Positions 28,201-53,471 of a DNA stretch of 64,000 nt are shown here, piece after piece. Origin of the DNA: Azolla caroliniana (lineage: Eukaryota; Plantae; Polypodiophyta); the NCBI GenBank assembly GCA_043228905.1, contig JBHGNT010000008.1, positions 7,440,001 to 7,504,000 of the forward strand, read 5' to 3'. A program made the position numbers and the translations under genes. The stretch's first letter is position 1. Each line of letters begins with the position of its first letter. The notes below the pieces were generated by a model. The model did no database searches and was not told the DNA's origin. It worked only from the letters and a program-made list of their open reading frames with translations.

Positions 28201-30560
28201 AGGAGAAAATGGCTTTCGTCACGGAATGGGGAGTTTTTGTAGCAAAAGTTATGATGTTCGGTCTAAAAATAACACCGGCTACGTTCCAGCGCATCATCAC
28301 TGAAATCTTTCATGACTACATTCCGGCGTTCATGCAAGTTTTTCTTGACGATTTTGCCGTGTATGGCCATCGACGGGAACACATGACCCAGTTACGACTC
28401 TGCCTGGACCGATGTCGCCAACCTCGATTGAGTTTAAACCCGGCAAAATGCGCGTTCTTAGTCACCAGCGGCAACCTTCTCGGCCACATTTTTAGTCAAG
28501 AAGGCATCGCTATGGACCCGGATAAAGTAAAGGCAATCCTGGATGCCACCGCACCCTCGAATGCTAAGGCACTAAGCTGTTTTTTGGGATAGATGCGGTG
28601 GCACAGCCGAATGATACGACACCTGGCCGATTTCGCGACACCCTTACACGCGACAGTCCATCGCCTTCCTTTCCAATGGACGTCAGTCGAGGATACGGCT
28701 TATCAGACCCTGAAACGAATGTTGTCACATGTCCCGGTGGTCCAGTCTCCGGTTTGGTCTGAACCGTTTCACGTCTTCGTAGATGCTTCAGACATCGCCA
28801 TCGGAAGTGCTCTGATGCAATGCACACCCCCGAATTGGTATAGGCCCGTGTACTACGCCAGCCGATGGCTCTCGACCGCGGAAAAGAATTACTCCACCGA
28901 GCGGGAGGCCCTCGGTATGATTTATAGCATCAATAAATTTCGGCATTACCTCTTGGGCCGAAAATTTACCTTTCACGTGGATCACTCGGCCCTTATTTAT
29001 TTGGTCAATAAACAAGCCCTCACCGGACGGTTGGCTCGGTGGATGGTCCTACTACAAGAGTTTGATTTTCAGATTCAGCATCGACCCGGGGTACAACATG
29101 CCGTCGCCGATTACTTGAGTCGTCTTGAGTCAGGAGAACCGGCGAAAATAACGTACGATGAGCTACCGGACGCCAGCCTATTTAACCTAACCACGGTACC
29201 AAACGATAACGGAGATGAATGGATCACGGAGATGACCCATTTTCTCACTACCGGTGTACCTCCCGAGCACATGACCCTTGACACGAGAAAACGCCTAGCA
29301 GTGCGTAGTCAGAATTTTTGCCTCGTCTCGGACATTCTCTACCACAAAGGCTCGGACGGCATATGGCGCCGAGCGATTCGGCAGTTCGAGAAGAACGCCA
29401 TTCTTCAGGAAGCCCACCAGGGAGTAGTTGGGGGACACTACGCCGGGGATTCCACGGCAAGGAAAGTTTGGCAAAGTGGATTATGGTGGCCAACAACGAA
29501 GAAAGACGCTCACGAGTTTTGCAGGTAGTGCGATTTGTGCCAACGACTGGGGCAACCAATGGAACAGTCACGGATGCCACACCAGCCGATTCTTCCATTG
29601 GACCCATTTCAAAAATGGGGTTTGGATTTTGTAGGCCCTTTCAAACCACCCGCGGCCCGAACAGGGAATAGATATATTATCGTTGCCACGGATTACTGCA
29701 CCAAATGGGTTGAGGCTAAGGCACTCCGAGATAACACGGCGGCATCCACGGCTAAATTTGTGTACGAGCACCTCTGGTGCCGTTACGGATGTCCAATCGA
29801 GGTCGTTAGTGACCAAGGTGGGCACTTCATCAATCATATAATACGTGAGCTTACACACCACTACGCGGTGGTGCACAAGAAAAGCACACAATACTACCCG
29901 CAGGCGAACGGCTTGACAGAATCAACAAATAAAATCCTCCAAACCATACTGAAGAAGATCGTCAATGAGAACAGGACCGATTGGGATGACAAACTCCAGA
30001 GCGCGCTGTGGGCGTATCATACGACTTTCAAAACAAGCATCCAATCGACCCCCTTTCGAATGGCGTTCGGGTTAGAAGCCGTAATACCCGTCGAGTTCCA
30101 AGTCTCGAGCCTCCAAGTTCAAGTCAAAGCACGGCTCCCCGAGGCCGAATCCGAGCAATACCAGCTGGAACAACTCCTCGAACTCGGGGAAGATAGGATA
30201 GAGAGTATGGCCCAGCTCGAACAACGCCAACGGCAACGCAAGGCTTTCGTGGATCAACATTGACATGGGCTGGAGAAGGAGCTCACCATCGGCAAACCAG
30301 TTCTTCTTTTTCAAACATGACTCGGGTCAATGCCGGGAAAATTAAGATTTCGGTGGACCGGTCCATTCTGGATTATCGACGAGTTCAACGGGACGTTCCA
30401 GCTCGGCACACTCGCCAGCGACACAGTCAAAAGCTGGGCCAATGGTTTTCGGCTTAGACCATATCGAGGGACTATACCACCCAACCCGTTTACCGAGCCA
30501 CACGGCACCAACGAGACTCGGGAGATCACCACGGAGGACGCCACATGTCCCCCTGAATAA
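25293..30560 (+). pseudogene. B gag-pol, fragmented by stops and frameshifts
   Basis: ORF fragments are colinear with and highly similar to the A polyprotein. Confidence 0.92.
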
Positions 30561-33500
30561 GGACTCACCCACCTTCTTGAAATTAATAAAAGTAGTAGTA
30601 GGTAGGATTAACCATAGTTTAGACACTGTTTAGCTACACCTACACCACCCACCTAGGCACCACAATTTTAGGAGCACCCCTCACTTCCACTCTTAGTTCA
30701 AGTTACCTTCAACTCTCTATGCTCCACCCCTCGCCACCACTCAGTTAGTACCTATTTAAGCTGTTCACACATGCAAACCACATGCAAAGCACTAGAAGCA
30801 CCCCACTCACCTTCAGGACAGGTGGTGCTAGTCACTTATTATGGCACCCACGACTCAGAATCTTCAGGATTCGCTGCAGGCACAAAACCCTAGGAATAAG
30901 TTACCAAAACCGTTTCCAAAACGCAGCACAGACCATTATCGCTCTCCATCTCCATTGCTCTCAAGATCAGAAACCCCATCTCGCCCTTATCACGCGAAAC
31001 GCTCTTGCCCCCTGTCGCCGACCAGAAAACTGCATCTGCACCACCACCCGCCCAACCCCAACAAAAAAGGGTAGTTTCCGAGACCTGCCAAGAATGGGAG
31101 GAGGAGGTAGCCGCGGAAGACAACACGGACGATAACGTCACCATTCGACAGCCAACGTCGCGCCCCTCAGTAACGTCCCCAGGACCTAGCCCATGCTCCA
31201 ACACAAGCAGGCTGCACCACCACGACCCCAGAAAAGGAAGCAGGCGGAGGAAACGACACTACCGGCCCCGGAACCCCAAACACAGCCAAGCAAAAGAAGA
31301 CGACTCAACCGCGAGTCCTCAGAAGAACAGAAGGAGCCACATCAGGAGCAAGCCTTAGTGGTCACACAGAGCAACCTGGCCATCACCCCTGCGGAGGCAT
31401 CGCTGAACCAGGGAACGATCGAGCATGGGCAGACAACATAGATCTCGGAGGATGAAGTCCTCGGGTATAAGGACCTCCCCGCGGAGGCTTACGAATTTAG
31501 TGCGCTCTTACGCCTCGGTACGTCATTCGAGTTGGTCGACTTCCTCGCCAGAGCCCAAGTCGCGGCAGCCGCTCGGATGGCGGAAGAGCACGCCGAAACA
31601 AAAATGATTCAACGCGCGCTAATAGGTGAAATTGAGCCCTAGGAGGATAGGGCTTTACAAAAAATCGGGAGGAAGAAGCAGGCAAAACAGGCCGCTCTCC
31701 TCATGGAGATCCCCGAGTTGAACACAGCCCTTATCGAGGCATATCGGGACCTGGATCGCACTACGCGGGCAGCCAAAGACATGGCCCGAAAGATAAAAGT
31801 AGCCCAAAAACAGGCTAAGATGGCTACAGAACTATGGCACGCTGTGAACCAGAAGCTGGCAGCCTGGGAGCAAAACTGGTCGGAACAACAAGTCCCGAGC
31901 CTTCCGGTAACAACCACCAAGGCCCTCCCAGCGGCTCCACGCATAACAATGATGGATGAAAGCACCATCACCGACTCCATCCTGAAGGTACAGGCCAGTA
32001 CACAAATGGACTCGTTACAAATGGTCGATGCCTGCACAACAACCGAGGCGGCCACGGCCGTGGAGCAAACCGAACTACCCGTACCTCGTGCAACCAAGGA
32101 GGTGGCAACCTAGACAGAACCCCACCTCCGGGATTACCGTGCGGAGCTTAAAGAAGAACAACGGCGAACCGAGATACACTAACAACGGCATCAAGAGGCG
32201 ATGGCTCGCCTAAAAGAAGAAGCTTCCAAGCAGATGGCCGAGATAAGAGCCCAAGCCGACCAACGGACACACAAGTAGAACGAAGCACTGGGCTGGGTAC
32301 AAGCACAAGCCGCGACCAAGGAAGCCGAACTCAAAAGCAAGCTGGAGGAATACGCAGCCACAGTGGTGAAGAAAGAGACGGAGGTTCTAGACCCACAGGC
32401 CGCGCTCGACAATGCACACGACTGGAACCAGCGGCAGGAGGAAAGAAATCGCCAACGAGAGGAGAGGATGAACGCAGAGAATGCCGAGTTGCAGAGTCAG
32501 CGTACGACCCTTAAAGAGATGGCTGACGAGTTTTTCATCAAGTGCAAGCTACTTTCAGAGCAAAAAGACGCCTTATCGGATTCCTACTTCGCCCTACAAG
32601 AAGAGAGAATCGTTGAACGGGAACAAATCCGGGCCACGTGTCAGAAAGAACGGGAGCAGGCCACCGAAGAACTCACCAAGCGTTACGAGCAGGCTCTCCA
32701 GCTCGTAACCGCGGATGCAAAGAACAGTCAGGCCATCTATGAGTTAAGGACACAGAAGATTCAGACCGAGGTCAACGGCTTAAAACAGGAATTAGCAGCC
32801 ATCCGAGCACAGCCCAGCATGGATGAGACACGCATCCGCATACTGCTTGAGAAACAATGCCAACACCTTACCAAAAAGGTCGAGGAAACATTAAGTCGCG
32901 CAGGAGACGAATGGGCAGCCCAAGCTGCCGAATTGCATATTTTACGCGCCGACGCCGAGAACTGACGGAAGGAGGGCCGCGACTTCTACAAAATGGACGA
33001 AGCCAGCATTCAAAACCTGCGTGCAGATTTAACCGAGGATTACCAGTCCTGGGCAAAATCTCACACCGCAGCAATCGAGCAAATAATGGAGGACTTCAAT
33101 GATGGTCAGATGTTGTTTCGCCTGGAAGCAGAAGCCTTCGAACGAGAATGACTCGCAGCCATCCCCACCAACCCTCCAACGGCCACAGAGCAGAAAGAAG
33201 AACCTCCCAACAAGGAGATCACGGACATGGACCAGGAGGAACTTGCCCCGGCCAACAGACATCCCTTGGTCGCCCACACGGTACCAGAGCCTGTCGAAGG
33301 AGAGGTCAGCACCCACGAACCCACACCCCCACCAGAAGAATCGGCCGCACCCGAGGCGGACGCCCGAGAAGATATGCCACCCCCGGGCCAAACTCAACCC
33401 CCCGCACCGACAGTCCAACTAGACCACCCTTCCACCACCCCGGACCCCGAAAGTGTCAGGAACTCTATTAAGGCAGAGAAGGAATTAGTACTAAAAGAAG

Positions 33501-33586
33501 GATTAGTACTATTGTTGGGGAATAGTACTAAGACAGAGAAGGATTAGTACTATGAGAGGTGTCGAACTTTGAGAGAAGGAATGAGT

Positions 33587-33634
<48 letters not shown>

Positions 33635-33853
33635 TGATGCGAAAGATATATGTATTATATGACGGAAGATATACAACAGTAGTTAGAAGGCTTAAGACTG
33701 GCGTTGAACCGATTTGGTTCGAACTAATGCCTTGCACCTCCTTTTATAGTGTCTTCAGGAATACTCCTGAAGTTTCTAGAATGTTCCAGAGAAATCTGGA
33801 ATATACATCAATTTCCTAATAAAACCTAAATGAAAATAATATCCTTCAAATTA

Positions 33854-33924
33854 CAACTCATAACCTAATGGTAAAGTCTCGACCCGTGTAACAAAAGGTT
33901 ATGGGTTCGAGTCTAGTTATGACA
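33854..33924 (+). promoter_or_regulatory. Degenerate tRNA-like Pol III A/B-box cassette in C U3 (two per C1 LTR, one per C2 LTR)
   Basis: TAACCTAATGG...GGTTCGAGTCT with tRNA-like spacing; TCATAAC/GTTATGA flanking stem. Confidence 0.55.
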
Positions 33925-34094
33925 TAGTTATGACAAAAGTCTCTAGAATGTTCCAGAGAAATCTGGAATATACATCAATTTCCTAATAAAACCTAAATGA
34001 AAATAATATCCTTCAAATTACAACTCATAACCTAATGGTAAAGTCTCGACCCGTGTAACAAAAGGTTATGGGTTCGAGTCTAGTTATGACATAG

Positions 34095-37000
34095 TTATGA
34101 CACTATCCTCCCTTTAAAACGACGAGTTTCACGAGTCGTTTTGGATTGAGGACCCGGTTTCTCGGGATATCGTCGATGGAAGTCTTCTAGAAGAGCACGA
34201 GCATTGGTCACATTCTCGATCGGTTCCCAAGTACGCTCGCTGGGACTATATCCTAGCCAATCGACTAGATAGTAGAGCTTGTTGCGAACAATCTTGGAAT
34301 CGAGGATGGCAGCGACCTCATACTCAGGTCCATCTTCGAGCTCGATAGGAGGTGGAGGTTGTATAGTACGTCCTGGGATAGTGCTCTCGTGATAGGGTTC
34401 GAGGAGAGAACTATGAAACACCGGGTGTATCCGAAGTTGCGGAGGTAGCTCGAGACGAAAAGCGACATCATTAATCTTTCCGATAATACGGAAAGGACCT
34501 AATCGTCGATAATCCAACTTCTCACATGGGCGAGTAGTCTTGATGTGTCGTCGTAGCAGCCACACCCGATCTCCAATGTTAAAACTGGATGGAAGTCGAT
34601 GACGATCTGCGTAGTCCTTGTGTGATTGTTGAGCTTGCTGGAGTTGAGTAGATAAATCCGCTTGTATCTTGCGTAACCGCTCCAAACGATCCTCCGCGTA
34701 AGGATTTGTGGACACTTCTGGGGTTTCAAGGACACACCACCGGGGATGATATCCCGTATAAGCGTAGAATGGCGTGACTTTAGTCGATGCGTGGATAGCG
34801 TTATTATAGGCAAATTCGGCAAACGGAAGAATATCTGCCCAGTCATTCTGATGATAGTTGAGAAAGCACCGCAGATACTGCTCCAGTGTTTGATTTGTTC
34901 GTTCGGCTTGACCGTCGGTTTGTGGGTGGTAGCCGGAGGAGAGGTTACAAGTGACCTTCAGCATTTTAAAAAGGTGCTTCCAGAATTTTGACACAAACTG
35001 GGGTCCACGATCGCTGATGATATTATCAGGGAGTCCATGATGCCGACATACTTCCCGCATGACAATTTCGGCGGTGTCTTCACTAGATATTTCTTTAGTA
35101 CATGGTAAGAAATGAGCCATCTTCGTATATCGATCCACCACTGTGAGAATCGCACTGAATCCCTTAGAGACTGGAAGATCTGTAATGAAGTCAAGAGCAA
35201 TGGATTGCCATGGCTTGCTTGGAATTGGTAATGGTTCTAATAAACCATATGGATGATGTCTTGGCATTTTCGCTCTGCAGCATGTATCGCAAGTCCGAAC
35301 AAAATCTTCGACAAATTGTCGCATACGGGGCCACCAGAATGATCGTTGTACTAAATCTAATGTTTTAGTACTACCAAAATGTCCTGCTGTATATGTGTCA
35401 TGGCAGTTTTGTACTACTCGAAGGCGGCAAGAACCATTAGGAACATACAAAAGTTCTTTAAAGAAGAGTAATCCATCACAGTATTTGAATTGCCGATAAT
35501 CCGTACCTGGTGATTGTGATTGTGAACATGACGCTCGAGAGGGGTCAATTTGTGCTAGTATAGCTTGGGCGAAAGCGTCAGTCTTCAAGTCCTCACGTAT
35601 AGTATTGGTAATGTCGGAATCCACGGGCATGTCAAAGATCTGTGCTGCTTGCAGTCGTGCTGGACCCAAGATTACTTGCTTCTGGTTATCGAAAGCTGGC
35701 TCACCGGGACGTGGTGTTAGATACGAACGCCGTGATAATGCATCTGCCTTCCCTTGGTGCTTCCCCGGACGATATGTAATTTTGAAGTCGAAGCGTGTGA
35801 GGAAATGGGCCCACCGAGCTTGACGTCGATTCAGTACACGAGCATCTTGAAAGTAGGCAAGGTTCTTGTGGTCACTGAATACAGTGACCTGATGAGGAGA
35901 TCCCTCCAGGAAATGCCTCCATTGCATAAAAGAATCAACTATTGCTAATAGCTCTTTATCATGAATTTCGTAGTTGATTTCGGCGGCGTCAAACTTACGG
36001 GAGTGGAAAGCCACAGGATGTAGCTTCTCGTCGTTACCCTGTTGTGACAGAATGCTCCCCAATGCGAAATCCGATGCATCAGCTTCGATAATGAATGGTT
36101 TTTCCGGATCCACATGACCTAAAATTGGAGCTGATGTAAACGCCTTCTTAAGACTCTCGAAAGCCATGTCCGTCTCTTTAGACCAAATGAATGATTGTCC
36201 CTTCCTGGTGAGCTGTGTGAGAGGCAGCACAATTTTTGAGTAATTTTGTATGAACTTCCGGTAGAAATTTGCAAAGCCTAGGAAGCATTGCACATCCCGC
36301 ACCGAACGCGGAGTGTGCCATTCTATCACCGTTTTGACCTTGGCTGGGTCCATAGATATGCCTTCTGAGGAGATGACATAGCCGAGAAACTCCACTTGGT
36401 TGCACCCGAAACTACATTTCTCTAACTTTGCATACAGACCATGTTCTCGAAGTCGTTTTAGTACTAATAGTACATGAGAATCATGTTCTTCTTGGGTCTT
36501 TGAATAAACCAGTAGATCATCCAAATAGATGATCAAAAAATCATCCAAGAGGTCTCGAAATATATCATTCGCCATGTGCTGGAAGACTGCCGGCGCATTA
36601 GTGAGTCCGAACGGCATGACCGTATACTCGAAGTGCCCATATCTGGTGCGAAACGCGGTCTTCCATTCATCTCCTGGTCGGATCCGTACGAGGTTATAGG
36701 CTCCTCGTAAGTCGATCTTCGTGAAGAACCTGGCACCGTTGATCCGTTCTAAAAGACTTGAGATAAGGGGAAGAGCATACCTATTTCTTACTGTGACCTT
36801 ATTCAAGCCACGGTAATCTACAACGAGTCGAAGCGAGCCATCTTTTTTCTTGACGAAGAAAATGGGTGCGCCGGCTGGAGATTTCGAATGCCGAATGAAA
36901 CCGTTCTCCAAATTCTCCTCTATATAGGCTCGAAGGACTTCTAGCTCGGTTGGTGACAAATTGTAGATCGGCCCCCATGGCGGCTCTTTTCCCGGTTGTA

Positions 37001-37691
37001 AGTCGATGGCGCAGTCGTACGGCCGATGATGAGGAAGTGTGTTGGCTTGTACTTTATCGAACACATCAGCATACTGACGATACTTCTCGGGAAGTTGAAC
37101 GGTGGACTCCTCTTTGGTGGTGCTGGAGGGTTGTACTGATATTGCAAAGAGAAACATTTCCTCCTTGCGCCCTTCCTCACGCAACTGACGTAGCGAAATG
37201 GTTGCAACCTTCTGGGTAGATCCTTGGGTTTGTCGCAACCGGATTTCCCTTGTCCTCCAATCTATGTCTGGGTCATGTAACTCGAACCATGGTAATCCTA
37301 AAACTATGGGATGTTCTGGAATACTAATAATATTAAATGATACTACACATGTTAAGTTATCTAGGACAATATTAACGGGTTCCGACTCTTCTATGATATT
37401 ACCAGAAGCAATGGGACGACCATCAATGACTACTACTGAGGCTGGACATGGGAGCTTTCTTAGAGATATCTGATGAGCTCGGGCAAAATTCCTATCCATG
37501 AAGCAAGAATTAGCTCCGGAATCTAGAAGGGCTAAGGTATGTACTGGAGGGGTACTTTTAGTACTAACTGCTACTTGGACTACGAACACATCACTAACTT
37601 GCTTAGAGGGAATGGAACCACTAATGGGCTGCACAGATCTAGGGCTGTCCAACCAAACGGCTCCTATTTTGGCTGGACTTAGTCGTTTAAC
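34095..37691 (-). CDS. C1 pol (PR, RT, RH, INT, chromodomain), expressed by -1 frameshift
   Basis: LLDSGA, YLDD, ADASD, HHCC/DDE, GPF, YEVAAILD...YLVDWLGY...TWEP. Confidence 0.95.
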   Translation of the reverse strand, partial: VKRLSPAKIGAVWLDSPRSVQPISGSIPSKQVSDVFVVQVAVSTKSTPPVHTLALLDSGANSCFMDRNFARAHQISLRKLPCPASVVVIDGRPIASGNIIEESEPVNIVLDNLTCVVSFNIISIPEHPIVLGLPWFELHDPDIDWRTREIRLRQTQGSTQKVATISLRQLREEGRKEEMFLFAISVQPSSTTKEESTVQLPEKYRQYADVFDKVQANTLPHHRPYDCAIDLQPGKEPPWGPIYNLSPTELEVLRAYIEENLENGFIRHSKSPAGAPIFFVKKKDGSLRLVVDYRGLNKVTVRNRYALPLISSLLERINGARFFTKIDLRGAYNLVRIRPGDEWKTAFRTRYGHFEYTVMPFGLTNAPAVFQHMANDIFRDLLDDFLIIYLDDLLVYSKTQEEHDSHVLLVLKRLREHGLYAKLEKCSFGCNQVEFLGYVISSEGISMDPAKVKTVIEWHTPRSVRDVQCFLGFANFYRKFIQNYSKIVLPLTQLTRKGQSFIWSKETDMAFESLKKAFTSAPILGHVDPEKPFIIEADASDFALGSILSQQGNDEKLHPVAFHSRKFDAAEINYEIHDKELLAIVDSFMQWRHFLEGSPHQVTVFSDHKNLAYFQDARVLNRRQARWAHFLTRFDFKITYRPGKHQGKADALSRRSYLTPRPGEPAFDNQKQVILGPARLQAAQIFDMPVDSDITNTIREDLKTDAFAQAILAQIDPSRASCSQSQSPGTDYRQFKYCDGLLFFKELLYVPNGSCRLRVVQNCHDTYTAGHFGSTKTLDLVQRSFWWPRMRQFVEDFVRTCDTCCRAKMPRHHPYGLLEPLPIPSKPWQSIALDFITDLPVSKGFSAILTVVDRYTKMAHFLPCTKEISSEDTAEIVMREVCRHHGLPDNIISDRGPQFVSKFWKHLFKMLKVTCNLSSGYHPQTDGQAERTNQTLEQYLRCFLNYHQNDWADILPFAEFAYNNAIHASTKVTPFYAYTGYHPRWCVLETPEVSTNPYAEDRLERLRKIQADLSTQLQQAQQSHKDYADRHRLPSSFNIGDRVWLLRRHIKTTRPCEKLDYRRLGPFRIIGKINDVAFRLELPPQLRIHPVFHSSLLEPYHESTIPGRTIQPPPPIELEDGPEYEVAAILDSKIVRNKLYYLVDWLGYSPSERTWEPIENVTNARALLEDFHRRYPEKPGPQSKTTRETRRFKGRIVS
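37640..37691 (-). promoter_or_regulatory. -1 ribosomal frameshift signal (G UUA AAC plus pseudoknot); copy at 52263-52314
   Basis: pol is in the -1 frame; 6-nt spacer, then 11-bp stem GUCCAGCCAAA/UUUGGUUGGAC; loop can pair with downstream GCCCUA. Confidence 0.8.
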
Positions 37692-38848
37692 TCTTCTTCT
37701 AATTGGCTAAGGACATCAAATTTGTTTGCGAGATTCGGACTATTAGTACTATTAGGACTATTATGACTATGAGGATTATCAGAGATTCCTACTGACATAG
37801 ACTCGGGTTTAGTATAGTCAGAACTAACAATGACTTGGTTTACCTGCCTTCTTGGTCTATGGGGACAGTTTATCGCGATATGCCCTGGTCCACCGCAATA
37901 AAGGCATAATCGGTTTGTTCGGCGTCGTTGCTTTTCCTCCTCCGATAGCGGCCCACGACGACGTGTAGTGTCAATTTCCATTGGAGTTGGAGTACTTACT
38001 GGAGGCGCATTATGTGACTCCCTTTGAAAAGGTTTCGCTACCATTGAGGCATAGGTAGGCTCGGATCTTGCCCTCGGCATCTGAAATTGTCGTTCCGAAC
38101 GTCGCTCGAAGAGGCGGTTGTCACATCTGACCGCTCGACTGATTGCTTCTGTTAATGATTTTGGCTCTTCAGGGAAAGTCAAGAGTAAATCCTTGACATC
38201 GTTGCGTAGACCATAGCGGAACTGCTCCATCAATGCTTGATCATCCCAGGGGATATCGGCGGCGAGTAGGCGGAAATCTGCAGCATATGCGGAGGCTGGA
38301 CGGTCACCTTGGCGTAATCGCCGGATTTTGTTGATTGCAGTCCTTATGCTGTCAGTATCTCCAAAACATGCTTTAAACTCACTTATGAATTCTTCAAAAT
38401 TATTTAGTACTGGAGATTCCTTTTCTAGTAGCGGTGCGAACCATGCTAATGCTGAGCCAGTTAACAACGTGCCTACTAAACCCACTCGTGATGCATCGGT
38501 GGGATATCGGGACGGATGCATTTGAATAACTAACCGTACCTGGTTAAGAAACCCTCTAAACTGCGATCGCGTTCCATCGAACTTCGTGGGAAGGCCAATC
38601 TTGGGTTCTTTATGAATCCCTTGTGCTCCGTGCCCTTGTTGTTGCATTGCTACGATGGTTGCTTCGAGTTGTTGCACGCGTAACGCAAGTTCCCCATGCT
38701 GTTGTTGCGTTTGCTGCTTTTCTAAGGAAATTTGCTGAAGATCCCCCAACAAGCGTTGATTTTCTTGTTCCAAAGCATGAAACTTCTCTTTCAAGCATTG
38801 AAATTCCGAGAAAACGGATTGATACTCTTCAGCGCTAACGGTGGCCAT
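37679..38848 (-). CDS. C1 gag, 389 aa
   Basis: PTKFDG...FLNQ, LRQG..ASAYAADF, PMEID, CLYCGGPGHIAINC. Confidence 0.95.
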   Translation of the reverse strand: MATVSAEEYQSVFSEFQCLKEKFHALEQENQRLLGDLQQISLEKQQTQQQHGELALRVQQLEATIVAMQQQGHGAQGIHKEPKIGLPTKFDGTRSQFRGFLNQVRLVIQMHPSRYPTDASRVGLVGTLLTGSALAWFAPLLEKESPVLNNFEEFISEFKACFGDTDSIRTAINKIRRLRQGDRPASAYAADFRLLAADIPWDDQALMEQFRYGLRNDVKDLLLTFPEEPKSLTEAISRAVRCDNRLFERRSERQFQMPRARSEPTYASMVAKPFQRESHNAPPVSTPTPMEIDTTRRRGPLSEEEKQRRRTNRLCLYCGGPGHIAINCPHRPRRQVNQVIVSSDYTKPESMSVGISDNPHSHNSPNSTNSPNLANKFDVLSQLEEELND

Positions 38849-38926
38849 GGGATGAAGGAAAAGGGAAATAAGAGACTAGTAGGAAAGGAGAGAGACAGAA
38901 GGAAGAGGGAGACTAGTAGGAGGAAA

Positions 38927-38938
38927 AAATCGGTTCAA
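38927..38938 (-). promoter_or_regulatory. C1 self-priming PBS
   Basis: TTGAACCGATTT (minus strand), 2 nt from the LTR, is complementary to LTR segment 39201-39212 located ~33 nt past TATAAAA. Confidence 0.8.
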
Positions 38939-39073
38939 ACTGTCAGGAACTCTATTAAGGCAGAGAAGGAATTAGTACTAAAAGAAGGATTAGTACTATT
39001 GTTGGGGAATAGTACTAAGACAGAGAAGGATTAGTACTATGAGAGGTGTCGAACTTTGAGAGAAGGAATGAGT

Positions 39074-39131
<58 letters not shown>

Positions 39132-39699
39132 TGATGCGAAAGATATATGTATTATATGACGGAAGATATACAACAGTAGTTAGAAGGCTTAAGACTGGCG
39201 TTGAACCGATTTGGTTCGAACTAATGCCTTGCACCTCCTTTTATAGTGTCTTCAGGAATACTCCTGAAGTTTCTAGAATGTTCCAGAGAAATCTGGAATA
39301 TACATCAATTTCCTAATAAAACCTAAATGAAAATAATATCCTTCAAATTACAACTCATAACCTAATGGTAAAGTCTCGACCCGTGTAACAAAAGGTTATG
39401 GGTTCGAGTCTAGTTATGACATAGTTATGACAAAAGTCTCTAGAATGTTTCTAGAATGTTCCAGAGAAATCTGGAATATACATCAATTTCCTAATAAAAC
39501 CTAAATGAAAATAATATCCTTCAAATTACAACTCATAACCTAATGGTAAAGTCTCGACCCGTGTAACAAAAGGTTATGGGTTCGAGTCTAGTTATGACAT
39601 AGTTATGACAGAAAGCATCCTCGACATCTTAAAGGAGGAATGAAACGAGGATCACGCCTAAAAGGCAATTTTTGTAATATTGTTAGTATTTTGTAAGTC

Positions 39700-39739
39700 G
39701 TGGGTCCGACGGACAAGGTCCTGTCCCACGGGCGTGCCA
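39700..39739 (+). promoter_or_regulatory. tRNA-Arg-like hairpin/CCA module at the PPT position (B)
   Basis: GTGGGTCCGACGGACAAGGTCCTGTCCCACGGGCGTGCCA, then GG, then LTR at 39742. Confidence 0.85.
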
Positions 39740-39741: not shown

Positions 39742-40195
39742 TGTTGTCCAGAGGACATAAATGTAAAATTAGGAAATTAGCAAACGCCGAGTCCGAGTAT
39801 CACGAGCCACCGATGGCTCGACGGTGTGTTAGGGGAAAAGTTATTTAAACGAGGAGCAGTACCTCAGAAAGGGAGAGAAGAAAATTATAGGCGGAAGCAC
39901 TAGCTTAGTCATTCGAATTAGATAAACTCGTAAGGTCACCGGCCATAGGCCGTGTTCTGTAATCCTTTTCTGCCATAGTAATATATCTTAATTGTGCCTA
40001 TTTTGCTGCATGAGTTTGTGTTTCGATCTATACCTATGAGTTTCACGCCGCCACGTCTATCAAAACCTCGCTAGTGTTTTCTCTCTGAGCCCTGTATCTC
40101 TCTCGACGCCTCTGTACGAGCCTTCATGTACGACGCCCTTGAAGACCGATAGACGCAGATCTATCGAAGGTGTTCACCCAAAGGAACGGGTAACA
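39742..40195 (+). repeat. B 3' LTR
   Basis: Matches the split 5' LTR. Confidence 0.93.
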
Positions 40196-42495
40196 CATTT
40201 AACTCCTAATTGCCTCCTTAAAAACATCTTTTGAATTTTCTCAATCTTGTTCCATGCATTAAGAGAGATGGTGCCACCACATACTTCTACTCCATAAAGC
40301 AATACTTGAGTTACCATGGCATTGAACAACATTAATTTTACTTCCCATCCACACGTATCACTTTGGTTGCATTGGTTCTCCAAAAGGTAATATGATTTCC
40401 AACCAGCTTGGAGTCTAGAATCAAAGCATGCACTCCATTTATTTGTGGCGGGTACATCAATACCAAGATATTTAAAGCTTTGAACAAATTGTATATGTTC
40501 ACCTTTATATGTGAGCATAGGGTAATGATGAGGTTGGATGGTTTGCACTACCATCATTTTTGTTTTCTCCACATTCACTGCTAGTCCACTACTATGGCAA
40601 CATTCTTCTAATACCCCAAGTAAATGTTGCATACTATCAACATCATATGAGAAGAGTACCCCATCATCCACATATAGAAGCGATAAGATAACATGTTGCA
40701 TGAAATTGGGGCCATTCAATCCTTCTTCTCTTGCAACCTTATTCACCACTTCTTCTAATTTATCAATACATAAGCCAAAGAGTGTGGGTGATAGTGGACA
40801 TCCATGTTACTTAAAAAGCTCTTTGAGAATCCACTATCCATTTTTAGTTGGCATTTAACTTGTTCATATAGGCGTGCAACCGAAACTCGGTACTCTAATG
40901 GCATGTCAATGTCAACCATTCTATTCCAAAGCTCACTTCGTGGTACAATATCAAAAGCTTTCTTGAAATCAACAAAACAACAATAAAGTGTTTTTCCTCG
41001 TAGTCGACTCTCTTCCATGATTACTCTTAATGTGAACAAATGATCCACGGTGGAGTGTTTTGGTCTAAATCCGGCTTGCCCAAGTGCTCTTTTGCTTGTA
41101 CTTTCAGCCCATGTGCTTATCTTTTGCTCCATAATAGTACTATATAATTTAGCAATAGTTGAGCTCACCATTATTGTACGATAATTTGCTACTTGATTCT
41201 TATCTCCGCCTTTAAATATTGGTTTAATCCAATTCATAAGACAATCGTTTGGAAATCCTTGTTTTATAGCTTGCTCTAAAATTGTCATTATCCAATCACG
41301 AGTGTGTGGCATTGTCCATTTTAAAAGCTCACTTGAGACGTAGGTGGAATCTGCTGCTTTCCCACTTGCCATCTTCTTTATTCCCTTATTGACATCATCA
41401 ATATCGATACATGTAGTGCATGGAGTTTCCATTTTCTTAACCATAGGAGCCACACCTTCATGCATATATAACCTTTGTACATAGTCTAGCATCTCTTCAT
41501 TTGTAAAGTGACCTTTCACATCTTGTTTCTTACCCTTGAGTTGTCCCCATGCTAATTTTGGTTTGAGCTTAAACAAGTTTTTCTTTTTCATCTCTTGCAT
41601 TTGGAAATATCTTCTTTTCTTTCTCCTCACTACTTTCTTGTATATGTGCCATGCAACAATCTTTTCATTCCCCCCTTCTATGGACTTAAACCATTTGAGA
41701 TACATCTTACATTCATCGTCGAACCAAGAATTACATGGAAAACTACACACCTTATGCCCACCCACATGTCTCTTAAAGCATTGATATCCAACCTTAAGGA
41801 TTATATCCCTCAAATGTTGCCAATTTTCTTTAACATCGTTGCTTAGAGAAAAATTTAACAAATGGTTCTCCACTTCATTTGCATACATCTTAGCTTTTTC
41901 ATAGCAAGGTTGGATGATACATCTCTTTTCGTCTTTCACTTCACGACATCTAGTGGAATGTGGAATTGCAAGCTCTAAGTACAATGGCTAGTGGTCTGAG
42001 TCTTGAGAGAGAGAACCAACTTTAAACACATTCACCAATGATAGATCACATGCCAACATTAATGCATAATCAACCACACTTCCTCCACCCGAGGATGGTA
42101 AACATGTGAGCACATTTGTCAATGCGAATGCCTTTATACCATTTAGGATAATCAAGTTTGTGCAATTTAGCATATGTATCAAAAGTTTTCCATAATCTGA
42201 CATGACACAATCCTTTGAGTCACGCAATAGACAATGTTCTACTACATTTTCTTCAAATGTCTCCACGTTTTGGAAATTTCCAACTCTTGCATTGAAGTCT
42301 CCCATAATTAAAACTTTACCAAGGTTCTCAAATGAAAGTATATCATGGCATAACTCTGTAAAAGGATCATCACAATCTAACCCAAACCTACTATAGTAGT
42401 TTGAGTCTTTGTGAGGAATGTAACATGCAACTATATACAACTTCTCTTTCCCCAAATTAACCTCTATCCATATGTATCTCTTATAGTCATCATAT

Positions 42496-42498
<3 letters not shown>
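40196..42498 (-). mobile_element. LINE, 5' part: APE endonuclease and RT, frameshifted, 5' truncated
   Basis: MGDFNAR, VVDY, DSDH (APE); NYRTI, QAGFR, FVDFKKAFD, LLYVDD, KYLG (RT). Confidence 0.9.

Positions 42499-42538
<40 letters not shown>
42499..42538. repeat. (GA)n microsatellite
   Basis: Seen directly; other (GA/CT)n runs lie in the C LTRs and near 45218-45256. Confidence 0.9.
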
Positions 42539-42539
<1 letters not shown>

Positions 42540-42542
<3 letters not shown>

Positions 42543-43483
42543 TTTTCTTATATTTCATTCATTCCCCATAAGGGTGTTAAATAGTACAAGAGGGGGGCAG
42601 ATACATAGGGGTGCAAGCCCCCTTGGCCATTCACACTAATCACTCACAGTCTCATACCTCTTCTTATCTATCCACTCATACTTACATTCATGCTCATAAT
42701 TGTATACATTACACATACATACAACAACATTAAGTTTCTTCACCCTCACTCAACTCTCCGTACATCTCGTACGGTAACACATTATGGCATGCTCGTGGGA
42801 CAATACCTTGCACGTCGATCCCACATGCCTTGATCATCATCTCTATTCGACCAGAACTTCCATCGGTCCTCTCATTGATCAACTCCCTCGATCGGAATGC
42901 TTGACTCGAAAATCTCCTTTGGTTAGCAAATCTTTCTCGACATGAACATTCTTGTTTTGTCAGCACACGATCTTCATCATGGGTCGAAAATCGCGTTGTG
43001 TGTATGTGTTCTTCCTTGTATTTTGTGTAAGAAGTTTCGTATTTTCAAAATTTTGGATGGCCTTGGGTTTTTAAAATTCTATTATATACCCTCGTGTTTT
43101 TACATTTCTCCCTATGCCCCTCATGTTTGTGAAATTTTTCAAATGCCCTTGTCTCTCTCTTTTTTCTTATGATTATTATTATTATTTCCTGTTTTATTTT
43201 ATTCATACTTTCGTTATTTTGTGTTGTTATGTTTAGGTCATATTTTTTTCCCTCCCTTTTCTATGTCTATCTCCATCTACTTCGATTTCTTCCTCTTGTC
43301 TGTTTCTTTATTTTCTTCTTTTCCAAAAATTTCCCCTGTTTGTCTATGTGTGCATCTTCTTTTTCTCTACTTTTCTCTTTCTTCCTTGCTTCTTATTGCA
43401 TCTCTTTCTCCGACTGTTTTGTATTTTTCTTCGTCGTCCATTTATCCTCTCTTCTTCCTCTATTTCTTCTTCTTCTTTTCTTT
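42540..43483 (-). mobile_element. Element E: old 3' remnant (partial LTR ending at 42779 plus module at 42785-42824)
   Basis: Minus strand GTGGGATCGACGTGCAAGGTATTGTCCCACGAGCATGCCA, then TAATG, then TGTTACC; outer limits uncertain. Confidence 0.55.
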
Positions 43484-43980: not shown

Positions 43981-44020
43981 TGGCACGCCCGTGGGACAGT
44001 GCCTTGCACGTCAAACCCAC
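43981..44020 (-). promoter_or_regulatory. tRNA-Arg-like hairpin/CCA module at the PPT position (F)
   Basis: Minus strand GTGGGTTTGACGTGCAAGGCACTGTCCCACGGGCGTGCCA, then TG, then LTR. Confidence 0.85.
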
Positions 44021-46372: not shown

Positions 46373-48368
46373 AGTTTTGCGTCTCCTCGGCCGACGCTGG
46401 AGGGTTTCTTCTTCTTCCTCCTCTTCCACGGTTTCCTGGTGTGCTTGTCTCACTGGTTCCGCCTGCTCTCTTTCCTGCCAGTGCAACTTAAACTTGATTG
46501 GCTTCGTCGTCTTCTTCGGAACTTTTTCCGCTGTCTCTTGTCTCTGTGTATCTTGTTATGAAGGCGCTCCGACTCTTCTTTGTGCACATCGGATCATGAT
46601 CTTCTGGATCGTTAGTCGTGCTCAAGATAGAAAAGGAAGGGGAAGGAGACTTACCTTTGTAGCAAACCAAAAAGCTTCTATTTCGTTACACGCAGAGAAA
46701 CCTCTCTCGTTTGTTTTTTCTTACAATGACACTCTCTCATTTCTCCTACTACTCTCTTACTTTTTTTTACCTAAGTATATAAGTGACATATATATGCAGC
46801 TAATTAGCCGTGAGTAGCTAAATAGTTGCGAATAGCTAAATAGTAGTTGTACTTATATGTCCACTAGTAGCTAATTTCCTAATAGCTACTATAGGAGGTC
46901 TCACTTACCAATATGCAACATATGCTTTTGTTGAGCTTGTTTCTCAACACTCCCTCTCAAGCTCAACTTAACCTTTCTTGAGGCCATCTTCAATCTTCTT
47001 TTCTTCATGCTTTTCAACTATCATACCAATGCTTATAACTCCCATCATGTTCCGAAACTGTGTATGTTTTTCTATGCTCAGTCCCTTCGTAAGAATATCA
47101 GCCACTTGCTTATTTGTGCCTACATACAACATATCCACTTCTCCATCAATCAATTTTTCCCTAACAAAGTAATAATGCACTTCAATGTGCTTTGTTCTTG
47201 CATGGAACACTGGGTTTTTTGGGAGCTGAATGTTGCTCATATTGTCATACCAAATTGTGATTGCACCATCTATATACTCTCCCAAATCAGCAAGCAATCT
47301 TCTGATCCATACCTCTTCACACGTGGCTATTGTAGCTCCTCTATATTCAGCTTCAATACTTGATAATGCAACAATAGCTTGTTTCTTGCTACCGCATGAA
47401 ATAACTGCACTTCCCAATGTAAACATAAATCCACTTGTGGATCTTCTATCAGTTTGTCTTCCAGCCCAATCAACATCTGTATATCCTTCCATCTTTATGT
47501 CCAGATCAGCCCGGTAAAACAGTCCATAGTTTTGAGTAGCTTTTACATACCTCAAAATTCTTCTAATGCAGTCCAAATGTGGCTTTGTTGGTTGTTGCAT
47601 AAACTGGCTGACTAATCCAACATCATAACTCAAATCAGGTCTTGTTATAGTCGATTATATGAGGTTGCCCACCATAGACCTGTACATGTTTACATCTTCT
47701 ATTTTGGCTCCCAAATCAGCCCTCAATTTGCAGTTCTTATCTAGTGGTACATCAATAGGTTTGCATCCAAGCATACCATACTTCTTCACATAGTTGTTGC
47801 ATACTGTTTTTGCAACATATATATACCACTTTCAGATATGATCATCTCAATACCAAGAAAGTATCTCAACTCTCCTAAATCCTTCATATGAAATTGCATT
47901 TCAAGGTTTTTCTTAAGCTTCCTTATTTCATCCATAGAATCACATCCAATGATTAAGTCATCAGCATATATCAAGATAACAACAATGCAATCATTTATCT
48001 TCTTTACATACAGTGATGGATCAACTTTTGACATTTTGAAGGCAATTTTTTTCAGAGATTCTGAAAGTTCTTTTTGCCATGATCTCGGTGCTTGTTTCAA
48101 TCCATAGAGAGCCCTTTTCAGCTTACCAACATACTCTGGATGCTTCTTATCTTCAAAACTTGGTGGTTGACAAATATACAATTCGTCTTCCAAGTTACCA
48201 TGTAAAAAAGCATTTTTTATATCCATATGGTGCAGAATCTGTCAGGAACTCTATTAAGGCAGAGAAGGAATTAGTACTAAAAGAAGGATTAGTACTATTG
48301 TTGGGGAATAGTACTAAGACAGAGAAGGATTAGTACTATGAGAGGTGTCGAACTTTGAGAGAAGGAAT

Positions 48369-48424
<56 letters not shown>

Positions 48425-48717
48425 TGATGCGAAAGATATATGTATTATATGACGGAAGATATACAACAGTAGTTAGAAGGCTTAAGACTGGCGTTGAACC
48501 GATTTGGTTCGAACTAATGCCTTGCACCTCCTTTTATAGTGTCTTCAGGAATACTCCTGAAGTTTCTAGAATGTTCCAGAGAAATCTGGAATATACATCA
48601 ATTTCCTAATAAAACCTAAATGAAAATAATATCCTTCAAATTACAACTCATAACCTAATGGTAAAGTCTCGACCCGTGTAACAAAAGGTTATGGGTTCGA
48701 GTCTAGTTATGACATAG

Positions 48718-51700
48718 TTATGACACTATCCTCCCTTTAAAACGACGAGTTTCACGAGTCGTTTTGGATTGAGGACCCGGTTTCTCGGGATATCGTCGAT
48801 GGAAGTCTTCTAGAAGAGCACGAGCATTGGTCACATTCTCGATCGGTTCCCAAGTACGCTCGCTGGGACTATATCCTAGCCAATCGACTAGATAGTAGAG
48901 CTTGTTGCGAACAATCTTGGAATCGAGGATGGCAGCGACCTCATACTCAGGTCCATCTTCGAGCTCGATAGGAGGTGGAGGTTGTATAGTACGTCCTGGG
49001 ATAGTGCTCTCGTGATAGGGTTCGAGGAGAGAACTATGAAACACCGGGTGTATCCGAAGTTGCGGAGGTAGCTCGAGACGAAAAGCGACATCATTAATCT
49101 TTCCGATAATACGGAAAGGACCTAATCGTCGATAATCCAACTTCTCACATGGGCGAGTAGTCTTGATGTGTCGTCGTAGCAGCCACACCCGATCTCCAAT
49201 GTTAAAACTGGATGGAAGTCGATGACGATCTGCGTAGTCCTTGTGTGATTGTTGAGCTTGCTGGAGTTGAGTAGATAAATCCGCTTGTATCTTGCGTAAC
49301 CGCTCCAAACGATCCTCCGCGTAAGGATTTGTGGACACTTCTGGGGTTTCAAGGACACACCACCGGGGATGATATCCCGTATAAGCGTAGAATGGCGTGA
49401 CTTTAGTCGATGCGTGGATAGCGTTATTATAGGCAAATTCGGCAAACGGAAGAATATCTGCCCAGTCATTCTGATGATAGTTGAGAAAGCACCGCAGATA
49501 CTGCTCCAGTGTTTGATTTGTTCGTTCGGCTTGACCGTCGGTTTGTGGGTGGTAGCCGGAGGAGAGGTTACAAGTGACCTTCAGCATTTTAAAAAGGTGC
49601 TTCCAGAATTTTGACACAAACTGGGGTCCACGATCGCTGATGATATTATCAGGGAGTCCATGATGCCGACATACTTCCCGCATGACAATTTCGGCGGTGT
49701 CTTCACTAGATATTTCTTTAGTACATGGTAAGAAATGAGCCATCTTCGTATATCGATCCACCACTGTGAGAATCGCACTGAATCCCTTAGAGACTGGAAG
49801 ATCTGTAATGAAGTCAAGAGCAATGGATTGCCATGGCTTGCTTGGAATTGGTAATGGTTCTAATAAACCATATGGATGATGTCTTGGCATTTTCGCTCTG
49901 CAGCATGTATCGCAAGTCCGAACAAAATCTTCGACAAATTGTCGCATACGGGGCCACCAGAATGATCGTTGTACTAAATCTAATGTTTTAGTACTACCAA
50001 AATGTCCTGCTGTATATGTGTCATGGCAGTTTTGTACTACTCGAAGGCGGCAAGAACCATTAGGAACATACAAAAGTTCTTTAAAGAAGAGTAATCCATC
50101 ACAGTATTTGAATTGCCGATAATCCGTACCTGGTGATTGTGATTGTGAACATGACGCTCGAGAGGGGTCAATTTGTGCTAGTATAGCTTGGGCGAAAGCG
50201 TCAGTCTTCAAGTCCTCACGTATAGTATTGGTAATGTCGGAATCCACGGGCATGTCAAAGATCTGTGCTGCTTGCAGTCGTGCTGGACCCAAGATTACTT
50301 GCTTCTGGTTATCGAAAGCTGGCTCACCGGGACGTGGTGTTAGATACGAACGCCGTGATAATGCATCTGCCTTCCCTTGGTGCTTCCCCGGACGATATGT
50401 AATTTTGAAGTCGAAGCGTGTGAGGAAATGGGCCCACCGAGCTTGACGTCGATTCAGTACACGAGCATCTTGAAAGTAGGCAAGGTTCTTGTGGTCACTG
50501 AATACAGTGACCTGATGAGGAGATCCCTCCAGGAAATGCCTCCATTGCATAAAAGAATCAACTATTGCTAATAGCTCTTTATCATGAATTTCGTAGTTGA
50601 TTTCGGCGGCGTCAAACTTACGGGAGTGGAAAGCCACAGGATGTAGCTTCTCGTCGTTACCCTGTTGTGACAGAATGCTCCCCAATGCGAAATCCGATGC
50701 ATCAGCTTCGATAATGAATGGTTTTTCCGGATCCACATGACCTAAAATTGGAGCTGATGTAAACGCCTTCTTAAGACTCTCGAAAGCCATGTCCGTCTCT
50801 TTAGACCAAATGAATGATTGTCCCTTCCTGGTGAGCTGTGTGAGAGGCAGCACAATTTTTGAGTAATTTTGTATGAACTTCCGGTAGAAATTTGCAAAGC
50901 CTAGGAAGCATTGCACATCCCGCACCGAACGCGGAGTGTGCCATTCTATCACCGTTTTGACCTTGGCTGGGTCCATAGATATGCCTTCTGAGGAGATGAC
51001 ATAGCCGAGAAACTCCACTTGGTTGCACCCGAAACTACATTTCTCTAACTTTGCATACAGACCATGTTCTCGAAGTCGTTTTAGTACTAATAGTACATGA
51101 GAATCATGTTCTTCTTGGGTCTTTGAATAAACCAGTAGATCATCCAAATAGATGATCAAAAAATCATCCAAGAGGTCTCGAAATATATCATTCGCCATGT
51201 GCTGGAAGACTGCCGGCGCATTAGTGAGTCCGAACGGCATGACCGTATACTCGAAGTGCCCATATCTGGTGCGAAACGCGGTCTTCCATTCATCTCCTGG
51301 TCGGATCCGTACGAGGTTATAGGCTCCTCGTAAGTCGATCTTCGTGAAGAACCTGGCACCGTTGATCCGTTCTAAAAGACTTGAGATAAGGGGAAGAGCA
51401 TACCTATTTCTTACTGTGACCTTATTCAAGCCACGGTAATCTACAACGAGTCGAAGCGAGCCATCTTTTTTCTTGACGAAGAAAATGGGTGCGCCGGCTG
51501 GAGATTTCGAATGCCGAATGAAACCGTTCTCCAAATTCTCCTCTATATAGGCTCGAAGGACTTCTAGCTCGGTTGGTGACAAATTGTAGATCGGCCCCCA
51601 TGGCGGCTCTTTTCCCGGTTGTAAGTCGATGGCGCAGTCGTACGGCCGATGATGAGGAAGTGTGTTGGCTTGTACTTTATCGAACACATCAGCATACTGA

Positions 51701-52314: not shown

Positions 52315-53471
52315 TCTTCTTCTAATTGGCTAAGGACATCAAATTTGTTTGCGAGATTCGGACTATTAGTACTATTAGGACTATTATGACTATGAGGATT
52401 ATCAGAGATTCCTACTGACATAGACTCGGGTTTAGTATAGTCAGAACTAACAATGACTTGGTTTACCTGCCTTCTTGGTCTATGGGGACAGTTTATCGCG
52501 ATATGCCCTGGTCCACCGCAATAAAGGCATAATCGGTTTGTTCGGCGTCGTTGCTTTTCCTCCTCCGATAGCGGCCCACGACGACGTGTAGTGTCAATTT
52601 CCATTGGAGTTGGAGTACTTACTGGAGGCGCATTATGTGACTCCCTTTGAAAAGGTTTCGCTACCATTGAGGCATAGGTAGGCTCGGATCTTGCCCTCGG
52701 CATCTGAAATTGTCGTTCCGAACGTCGCTCGAAGAGGCGGTTGTCACATCTGACCGCTCGACTGATTGCTTCTGTTAATGATTTTGGCTCTTCAGGGAAA
52801 GTCAAGAGTAAATCCTTGACATCGTTGCGTAGACCATAGCGGAACTGCTCCATCAATGCTTGATCATCCCAGGGGATATCGGCGGCGAGTAGGCGGAAAT
52901 CTGCAGCATATGCGGAGGCTGGACGGTCACCTTGGCGTAATCGCCGGATTTTGTTGATTGCAGTCCTTATGCTGTCAGTATCTCCAAAACATGCTTTAAA
53001 CTCACTTATGAATTCTTCAAAATTATTTAGTACTGGAGATTCCTTTTCTAGTAGCGGTGCGAACCATGCTAATGCTGAGCCAGTTAACAACGTGCCTACT
53101 AAACCCACTCGTGATGCATCGGTGGGATATCGGGACGGATGCATTTGAATAACTAACCGTACCTGGTTAAGAAACCCTCTAAACTGCGATCGCGTTCCAT
53201 CGAACTTCGTGGGAAGGCCAATCTTGGGTTCTTTATGAATCCCTTGTGCTCCGTGCCCTTGTTGTTGCATTGCTACGATGGTTGCTTCGAGTTGTTGCAC
53301 GCGTAACGCAAGTTCCCCATGCTGTTGTTGCGTTTGCTGCTTTTCTAAGGAAATTTGCTGAAGATCCCCCAACAAGCGTTGATTTTCTTGTTCCAAAGCA
53401 TGAAACTTCTCTTTCAAGCATTGAAATTCCGAGAAAACGGATTGATACTCTTCAGCGCTAACGGTGGCCAT
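52302..53471 (-). CDS. C2 gag
   Basis: Translation identical to C1 gag. Confidence 0.95.
   Translation of the reverse strand: MATVSAEEYQSVFSEFQCLKEKFHALEQENQRLLGDLQQISLEKQQTQQQHGELALRVQQLEATIVAMQQQGHGAQGIHKEPKIGLPTKFDGTRSQFRGFLNQVRLVIQMHPSRYPTDASRVGLVGTLLTGSALAWFAPLLEKESPVLNNFEEFISEFKACFGDTDSIRTAINKIRRLRQGDRPASAYAADFRLLAADIPWDDQALMEQFRYGLRNDVKDLLLTFPEEPKSLTEAISRAVRCDNRLFERRSERQFQMPRARSEPTYASMVAKPFQRESHNAPPVSTPTPMEIDTTRRRGPLSEEEKQRRRTNRLCLYCGGPGHIAINCPHRPRRQVNQVIVSSDYTKPESMSVGISDNPHSHNSPNSTNSPNLANKFDVLSQLEEELND

Follow-up and report, generated by a model that had tools for sequence, protein, structure and literature searches.

In retroviruses and LTR retrotransposons, the rule is that a tRNA primes the first DNA strand and a purine tract primes the second (PMC5371799). 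Canonical elements with a primer-binding site and a polypurine tract (PPT), such as Ty3 and HIV-1, have an LTR pair, a 5' tRNA primer site, and gag-pol, and their plus-strand origin is expected before the 3' LTR (PMC5371799, PMC1785368). The elements analyzed here share this organization but, unlike the canonical ones, have the 3' end of a tRNA copied in sense, with CCA and an inserted hairpin, where the PPT is expected; we refer to this sequence as the module. To our knowledge, exceptions to the tRNA/purine-tract rule concern the first strand only.

tRNA-related sites near the 3' end have been described in Ty1, Ty3, and Drosophila gypsy (PMC5371799, PMC1635307), and the Ty1 site is split by a looped-out segment, as the module is. 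These sites pair with the tRNA in the sense RNA, serve minus-strand priming, and occur in elements that have a PPT. In contrast, the module could pair with a tRNA on the minus strand only, and its match includes the CCA end. Small-RNA-derived sequences are also found in LTR retrotransposons of the TRIM type, namely, Helenus, Cassandra, and Ajax (PMC10886601), where, however, the sequence lies within the LTR, has been proposed to be a Pol III promoter, and belongs to non-autonomous elements that keep their PPT. Finally, several features of the module elements (no chromodomain, great length, an extra ORF, and a non-Met primer site) recur among Athila, Tat (TatI-III, Ogre, and Retand), Phygy, and Selgy, and a 5-bp target duplication is common to the module elements, Athila, TatIII, Ogre, and Retand (PMC6317226).

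The module and its copies in the window

The window, that is, the whole stretch of DNA that was analyzed, comprises 64 kb. At 39700 to 39739 (+ strand) it reads GTGGG TCC GAC GGAC AAG GTCC T GTC CCAC GGGCGTGCCA, and direct reading of the letters bears out the way in which the initial annotation had parsed this segment. The first 10 nt (39700 to 39709, +) form a tRNA-like block made up of a T-stem 5' strand and T-loop-like letters; judged by its sequence and by position counts over 70 placed blocks of 72 distinct ones, this block would correspond to tRNA positions 49 to 58. It is followed by a 13-nt insert (39710 to 39722, +), a covarying hairpin that consists of C, the arm GGAC (39711 to 39714), the loop AAG (39715 to 39717), the arm GTCC (39718 to 39721), and T. 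The remainder (39723 to 39739, +) is a near-invariant 17-nt block ending in CCA, at which read depth is maximal. This block repeats, in sense, the 3' end of a tRNA and complements the primer site of family B elements (see below), and it probably represents tRNA positions 59 to 76 with one C absent. The numbering from 49 to 76 is one that we assume for the module, the letters of positions 49 to 63 being presumed. Removal of the 13 nt does leave a T-arm-like stem-loop and an acceptor-like strand, as had been noted, but the strand lacks one C that the family B primer site predicts for the tRNA end.

Five copies of the module exist in the window (chance expectation for the 17-nt tail, 0.03), and their sequences confirm the inner stems assigned to them earlier. 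Copy A (24634 to 24673, +) has the stem GTAC/GTAC, starts with AAGGG at its 5' end, and lies 2 nt before a 3' LTR, with no purine tract. The stem is GGAC/GTCC in copy B (39700 to 39739, +) and ATG/CAT in copy Z (5343 to 5383, +), the latter being followed by 2 nt and TGTTG. On the opposite strand, copy F (43981 to 44020, -; GTGC/GCAC) sits 3' of a decayed homologue of the extra ORF described below and 2 nt before an LTR-like TGTTA, while copy E (42785 to 42824, -; GTGC/GTAT) is decayed and has two changes in the tail. In four of the five window copies, and also in a deep relative, L122 (see below), 2 nt separate CCA from the 3' LTR. A covariance model run across the window recovered the five known copies and no sixth one above chance.

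The initial annotation had called the tRNA in question tRNA-Arg. This label found no backing in our searches: ARAGORN reported 0 tRNAs in the window, and Rfam gave no tRNA match and no family at the cutoff for either the window or the isolated module. Arg is a presumed name for the tRNA of the module tail. Likewise, neither the cloverleaf of a tRNA gene nor the A box and intact B box of a tRNA-derived SINE was found, and the 5' acceptor strand is not conserved upstream of the module (27/124).

Elements A and B and their classification

Element A has a 5' LTR at 15212 to 15631 (+) and a 3' LTR at 24676 to 25095 (+), which are identical at 418 of 420 positions, and is flanked by the target duplication ACGCC. 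Its minus-strand primer-binding site, TGGCGACCAC (15638 to 15647, +), is directed at another tRNA end than the one found in the module and is common to six A-type loci (L010, L012, L022, L044, L047, and L058). The amino-acid label of this type of site is disputed in human retroviruses (PMC4724089). A single open frame of 1955 aa (15680 to 21547, +) encodes gag-pol, with the domains arranged as in Ty3/gypsy elements; Pfam searches of 15680 to 21544 identified gag, RT, RNase H, and integrase, in this order, and gave no match for a protease, a chromodomain, or a second RNase H. An extra 3' ORF of 1001 aa, counted from stop to stop (21618 to 24623, +), ends 10 nt before the module. It has no Pfam match; an extended coiled region is predicted in it, and its end is rich in Q and P. 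In most families, homologues of this ORF are located upstream of the module.

Element B is split by element A, so that its 5' LTR exists in two pieces (14843 to 15211 and 25101 to 25185, +), of which 365/369 and 82/84 positions, respectively, are identical to the 3' LTR (39742 to 40195, +). The latter begins 2 nt after the CCA of the module, and the 5-bp target duplication CATTT is found at 14838 to 14842 and 40196 to 40200. A stop-interrupted gag-pol (25143 to 30509, +) with gag, a zinc knuckle, RT, RNase H, and integrase was detected by Pfam and tblastn. The primer site is lost in this copy and retained by its relatives L017, L025, and L074; a short repeat of the nearby LTR, at 25186 to 25220, replaces the site together with about 100 nt. 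A chromovirus (33454 to 39610, -; target duplication GAAAG) is nested in element B 89 nt before the module. It has an ordinary purine tract, AAAGGGAGGATAG (34103 to 34115, -), before its 3' LTR and serves as an internal control.

Because gag-pol (+), the module, 2 nt, and the 3' LTR follow one another in elements A and B, the module occupies the place proper to the polypurine tract; it lies at the PPT site of non-chromovirus Ty3/gypsy elements, in sense to gag-pol and 2 nt before the 3' LTR. The earlier suggestion that it could position a primer was right as to direction, although this location had not been stated. A reversed element in which the module is an ordinary primer site was considered and is excluded by the orientation of the genes.

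TG...CA LTRs, target duplications, the domain order, and a 5' primer site (at 15638 in element A, in six A-type and six B-type loci, and in L122) assign the module elements to Ty3/gypsy. Canonical PPT priming does not describe them: the longest purine run within 60 nt before the LTR is at most 8 in 126 of 127 copies, and L122 has no purine tract before its 3' LTR. They are not chromoviruses either, as there is no Chromo match in element A and its RT falls outside the chromovirus rows of our tree. The archaeal-type RNase H that distinguishes Tat was not found in element A or L122 (no PF00075 or PF13456 match), and tree rows carrying an additional RNase H fall outside the module clade. Phygy and Selgy, which we compared through their published descriptions (PMC6317226) rather than by placement in the tree, are short and have a 4-bp duplication and no extra ORF, unlike the module elements with their 5-bp duplication and 1001-aa extra ORF. 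Athila fits in that it has no extra RNase H, but the module elements differ from it in their forward 3' extra ORF and in a primer site other than the Asp/Asn site of Athila. The angiosperm and pine rows of the tree, which we take to be Athila-like, form another branch, the backbone being unresolved. The module elements themselves form their own supported RT-RNase H clade, the named relatives of which are liverwort and fern proteins (about 50% or less). They appear to fit none of the lineages of Neumann et al. (PMC6317226) cleanly.

Copies outside the window and a deep relative

When metagenome contigs were scanned for the tail together with an LTR start, 126 stretches in 121 loci were obtained; they contain 128 copies, and all 121 loci come from one series of assemblies. 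Combined with the five copies of the window, 127 had enough upstream sequence; 90 of these were distinct, and 89 were aligned, L066 being left out for a microsatellite in place of the hairpin. Of 57 matches to the extra ORF (50 oriented loci with matches), 55 are located upstream of the module and on the same strand as it, and the order pol, extra ORF, module, LTR is seen in L004, L056, and L074. Contigs from four runs (organisms A and B) gave 535 to 1014 pieces each, which are stacked on the module and have unlike flanks on both sides; organism C (301 pieces) and organism D (25 pieces) show the same stacking. No pieces were obtained from the runs of organisms E and F, a result that is uninformative. 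Neither an RT relative nor a module nor a tRNA-like motif without the insert was found in viral contigs, and in a 401-genome phylum sample a relative was present in one genome only, the one already known. On L033, a high-coverage contig that begins with the module and LTR, ARAGORN predicted two tRNA-Lys genes (1062 to 1137 and 2756 to 2828).

L122 was found by a search of genome contigs with the element A integrase, independently of the module. It is a whole element with gag, pol, a primer site of 18 nt, and LTRs at 2891 to 4532 and 14997 to 16651 (93%); its RT-RNase H is 65% identical and forms a deep branch of the same clade (support 99/94). At its 3' end, GGGTT is followed by a hairpin with 7 bp, all of them matched, and a loop of 4 nt; next come a 17-nt tail that terminates in CCA, 2 nt, and the LTR. 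The sequence of this hairpin is unrelated to those of the window hairpins and its position is the same, while the tail differs from the window tail at three places. A hairpin of this kind appeared in 43 of 20,000 shuffles, and the evidence from L122 is that of one copy. The covariance model scores L122 at chance level (E 4.7), and its extra region gave no match to the extra ORF of element A. Twelve matches to the L122 tail in viral contigs were dismissed as chance, having neither a hairpin nor an LTR start. In L123, the second match of the integrase search (32% identity), no module was seen. The L122 contig belongs to a bacterial genome bin, and its positions 1 to 2900 are a bacterial flank with a frameshifted sugar-binding transporter gene beside the element (2891 to 16651). 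Because of this bacterial left flank, the contig is probably chimeric or misbinned.

Covariation of the inner hairpin

Among the 89 distinct copies, the middle pairs of the inner stem switch on both arms (T-A in 40 and G-C in 37; A-T in 41 and G-C in 38), pair 1 is G-C in 59, G-T in 13, and A-T in 5, and pair 4 is C-G in 78. All four stem combinations are present: GTGC/GCAC, GTAC/GTAC, GGGC/GCCC, and GGAC/GTCC. Cells changed on both sides number 82, compared with 35.4 +/- 10.6 in shuffled alignments, and the covariation score is 0.207 versus 0.111; in 500 shuffles, neither the double-change count nor the score was reached once (0/500 each). Slid registers of the stem score at most 0.067 each. 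Measures of pair count and pair type are unexceptional (reached by 41/500 and 96/500 shuffles).

Related sequences may exceed shuffles in a test of this kind. As a control for kinship, a tree of the extra-ORF protein was built from 38 distinct pieces representing 46 of 77 copies. A-T at pair 3 is split between two separate clades of this tree, and G-C at pair 2 likewise occurs in two clades, one of which adjoins the mismatch state GTGC/GCCC; pair 2 seems to pass via this state (L046 and L049). In a quicker, 33-row tree, from which five indel rows were left out, pair 3 tops 91 column pairs, with 4/4 changes coinciding on both arms; pair 1 shares the second rank with 2 coincident changes, and pairs 2 and 4 have none. 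RNAalifold retained three inner pairs and dropped the outer ones. The inner hairpin is genuine, and what is conserved in it is the pairing. The covariation that the initial annotation saw in the window copies holds up in the larger alignment, and its claim of a structure under selection stands for the inner hairpin of 4 to 5 bp, on the basis of covariation, trees, and L122, but not for the long extended hairpin.

These results also bear on a relic hypothesis, according to which the module is left over from a captured piece of a tRNA or from a Pol III promoter box, as in Helenus and SINEs, in which case the covariation would reflect a few inherited changes. The copies are indeed related, and the 5' block resembles half of the B box motif. 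However, the insert splits the B box, and an A-box-like match upstream, with one mismatch allowed, is present in only 21 of 127 copies. The first rank of pair 3 and the rebuilding of the hairpin from other letters in L122 speak against a handful of inherited changes, and we consider the relic explanation very improbable. Furthermore, CCA is added post-transcriptionally in eukaryotes, so that a gene copy would lack it (PMC6317226), and the tRNA-like part of Helenus is described as lying within the LTR of an element with a PPT (PMC10886601).

Outer pairs, folding, and the possibility of a primer in cis

The AAG loop, which had been described as invariant, is present in 5/5 window copies; among 81 distinct upstream 24-mers, however, it is found in only 35, the others having AAT (21), ATT (7), AAA (6), or another loop (12). 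An extension of the hairpin by GAC/GTC and GTGG/CCAC pairing, also put forward, is contradicted by frequent breakage: none of the 7/7 outer pairs shows a compensatory change in the 89 copies, and GAC/GTC is broken from the 5' side, with the G-C pair open in 26/89 and the A-T pair in 18/89. Because the search pattern fixed the 3' letters TGTCCCAC, outer compensation would be invisible, and outer-pair breakage alone is informative.

Single copies fold no better than shuffles (z from -0.08 to -1.37 for RNA and from -0.32 to +0.80 for DNA), and the long hairpin is the exact minimum-energy fold of the free RNA in 0/5 window copies, copy E coming nearest. In the free RNA folds of copies A, F, and Z, the CCA tail pairs with the 3' arm. 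This alternative fold shows no covariation (its score is reached by 211/500 shuffles), and it is therefore rejected as a selected structure; for two of its pairs, roughly half of the copies show a break. Pair probabilities were computed for 72 copies in which both middle pairs are intact. The median probability of the covarying pairs is 0.10 in the free plus RNA (above 0.5 in 20/72), which disfavors the free RNA hairpin with about 10 single-stranded nt that had been envisaged, and 0.76 when the last ten bases are held unpaired (52/72). It is 0.72 in the free minus-strand DNA (44/72) and reaches 0.96 when both tRNA-like blocks of that DNA are kept from pairing, a value that is partly trivial, as any additional restraint of this kind favors the hairpin. 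Nonstandard stem pairs on the plus strand are G-T in 18 cases and A-C in 7; they do not favor the minus strand, and 13/18 of the G-T pairs are at one likely methylation hot spot.

The excess of G-T over A-C would suit a primer that acts in cis, in which the element's own RNA, ending in the tRNA-like CCA and capped by the hairpin, would survive RNase H, be cut after CCA, and prime the plus strand. The position and the 2-nt spacing of the module fit such a primer equally well, unwinding of a host tRNA would be unnecessary, and the near-invariant GGG/CCC of the T-stem (70, 65, and 69 of 70) is able to pair in cis. That such an RNA primer would be spared by RNase H keeps some plausibility because the hairpin probability rises to 0.76 when the last ten bases are held, as they would be by DNA. 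On the other hand, exact identity to a host tRNA would not be needed, yet the tail is kept across families whose LTRs do not align. In addition, the outer cis stem is often broken and uncompensated, the competing fold of the free RNA buries the CCA tail, and RT would presumably copy the hairpin first, so that the RNA would already be a hybrid on meeting RNase H. All things considered, a primer in cis is the main alternative to priming by a host tRNA (see below) but appears rather unlikely.

The 5' primer sites and the candidate tRNA

A 5' primer site, TGGCACGCCCGGT, is found in L004, L017, L025, L034, and L074 and, with one mismatch, in L054 (six B-type loci). It is the complement of the module tail plus one C, and the tail therefore copies an RNA end that is already used as a primer-site partner. 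The last 13 nt of the tRNA were deduced from these family B sites; a search for the corresponding host tRNA gene did not find it. Family A and L122 have other 5' sites and retain the module, indicating that the module is not tied to the 5' site of the element that carries it. Pairing between the two, which could make the minus strand self-priming, is possible in family B and not in family A or L122, and for this reason self-priming was rejected as a general mechanism. The gap between the 5' LTR and the primer site ranges from 2 to 7 nt across families (window, 15632 to 15637; L025, L012, and L122).

In retroviruses, the primer site is 18 nt long and bounded by methylated A58 (PMC1785368). With respect to sequence, the invariant block of the module would have this length less one and end at A58, and the hairpin appears to be inserted exactly at the tRNA 58/59 junction. 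In the 5' block, position 54 is T in 67/70, and position 55 is only T or C (46/24). This constraint fits pairing with a tRNA, whereas a cis hairpin leaves both positions unpaired; tolerance of T/C or G/A is equally expected from plain transition bias. Changes that would break tRNA pairing also occur in this block, namely, C56 to T (11/70), which does not fit tRNA pairing, an inserted A (9), and AAGGG in element A. A literature search with the module motifs returned what appear to be unrelated primers, and no paper was found on two primer sites in Drosophila micropia.

Proposed plus-strand priming

Whether by a tRNA or in cis, the module very probably serves as the plus-strand origin. The folding of the minus DNA and the constrained positions 54/55 favor priming by a host tRNA or its 3' fragment, and we give somewhat better than even chances to a mechanism in which this RNA anneals to minus-strand DNA, with the hairpin looped out, and primes the plus strand. 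After minus-strand synthesis, RNase H would strip the RNA and expose the DNA TGGCACGCCC GTGGGAC - hairpin - TCGAACCCAC. The first 17 nt of the minus DNA would then pair with tRNA positions 59 to 76, one tRNA C being bulged. The hairpin would be extruded at 58/59, beside the methylated A58 that is unable to pair normally, and the block beyond it would pair with positions 49 to 57. From the CCA end of the tRNA, the plus strand would start 2 nt outside the LTR, which is the usual spacing for integrase end processing. A 3' tRNA fragment of 17 to 19 nt might substitute for the whole tRNA, and fragments of this kind have been described (PMC7472051).

The same complementarity could be read in the opposite direction. 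Viewed on the minus strand, the LTR end CA, 2 nt, and TGG follow one another as in a primer-binding site, and second, 3' tRNA-binding sites are known from Ty3 and Drosophila gypsy (PMC5371799, PMC1635307). The module might accordingly be an antisense first-strand primer site or a site of tRNA capture or packaging, with the plus strand primed otherwise and the hairpin pausing RT or shaping the RNA. Yet the Ty3 and gypsy sites complement the tRNA in the sense RNA beside a PPT, while the module is identical to the tRNA in sense. Moreover, an antisense element would have no purine tract at its opposite end either, which is occupied by a normal primer site; the antisense route thus leads to two tRNA primers again, and we regard this family of explanations as quite improbable.

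Extending the host tRNA model, we tentatively propose, with a little less than even confidence, that an old plant Ty3/gypsy clade, found in four or more host organisms, has given up the PPT and uses host tRNA to prime both strands. The hairpin of the minus DNA would loop out at m1A58 in a DNA-tRNA three-way junction across the whole T arm, and its sequence and length would be free to turn over. In the literature that we searched, mostly open-access papers, no description of a tRNA-primed plus strand was found. A high-copy clade without a purine tract is a natural system for studying plus-strand primer requirements. It also offers a route to how RNase H selects and removes the primer and to whether tRNA fragments aid rather than hinder a retroelement, and the hairpin, being small and precisely defined, is a substrate that lends itself to tests. 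Programs that include a PPT in their annotation score would be expected to misjudge or mis-orient the module elements.

Other elements in the window

The chromovirus nested in element B (33454 to 39610, -) has a second copy at 48236 to 54050 (-). The two are 99.7% identical, encode gag and a separate pol with a chromodomain, and have tandem duplications of 167 to 178 nt at their LTR ends. A gypsy-like element at 6237 to 11985 (+) has 727-nt LTRs (99.6%) and the primer site TGGTGAACCTGACGTG; the branch of its RT is very long (25% to element A), a frame of 951 aa extends into its 3' LTR, and a purine tract is not obvious. Directly 3' of element B is a broken LINE (40174 to 42554, -) with endonuclease and RT. 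Tandem arrays at 56483 to 57322 (about 140 nt, 5 copies) and 60337 to 61400 (about 110 nt, 8 to 9 copies) lie amid decayed retroelement pieces.
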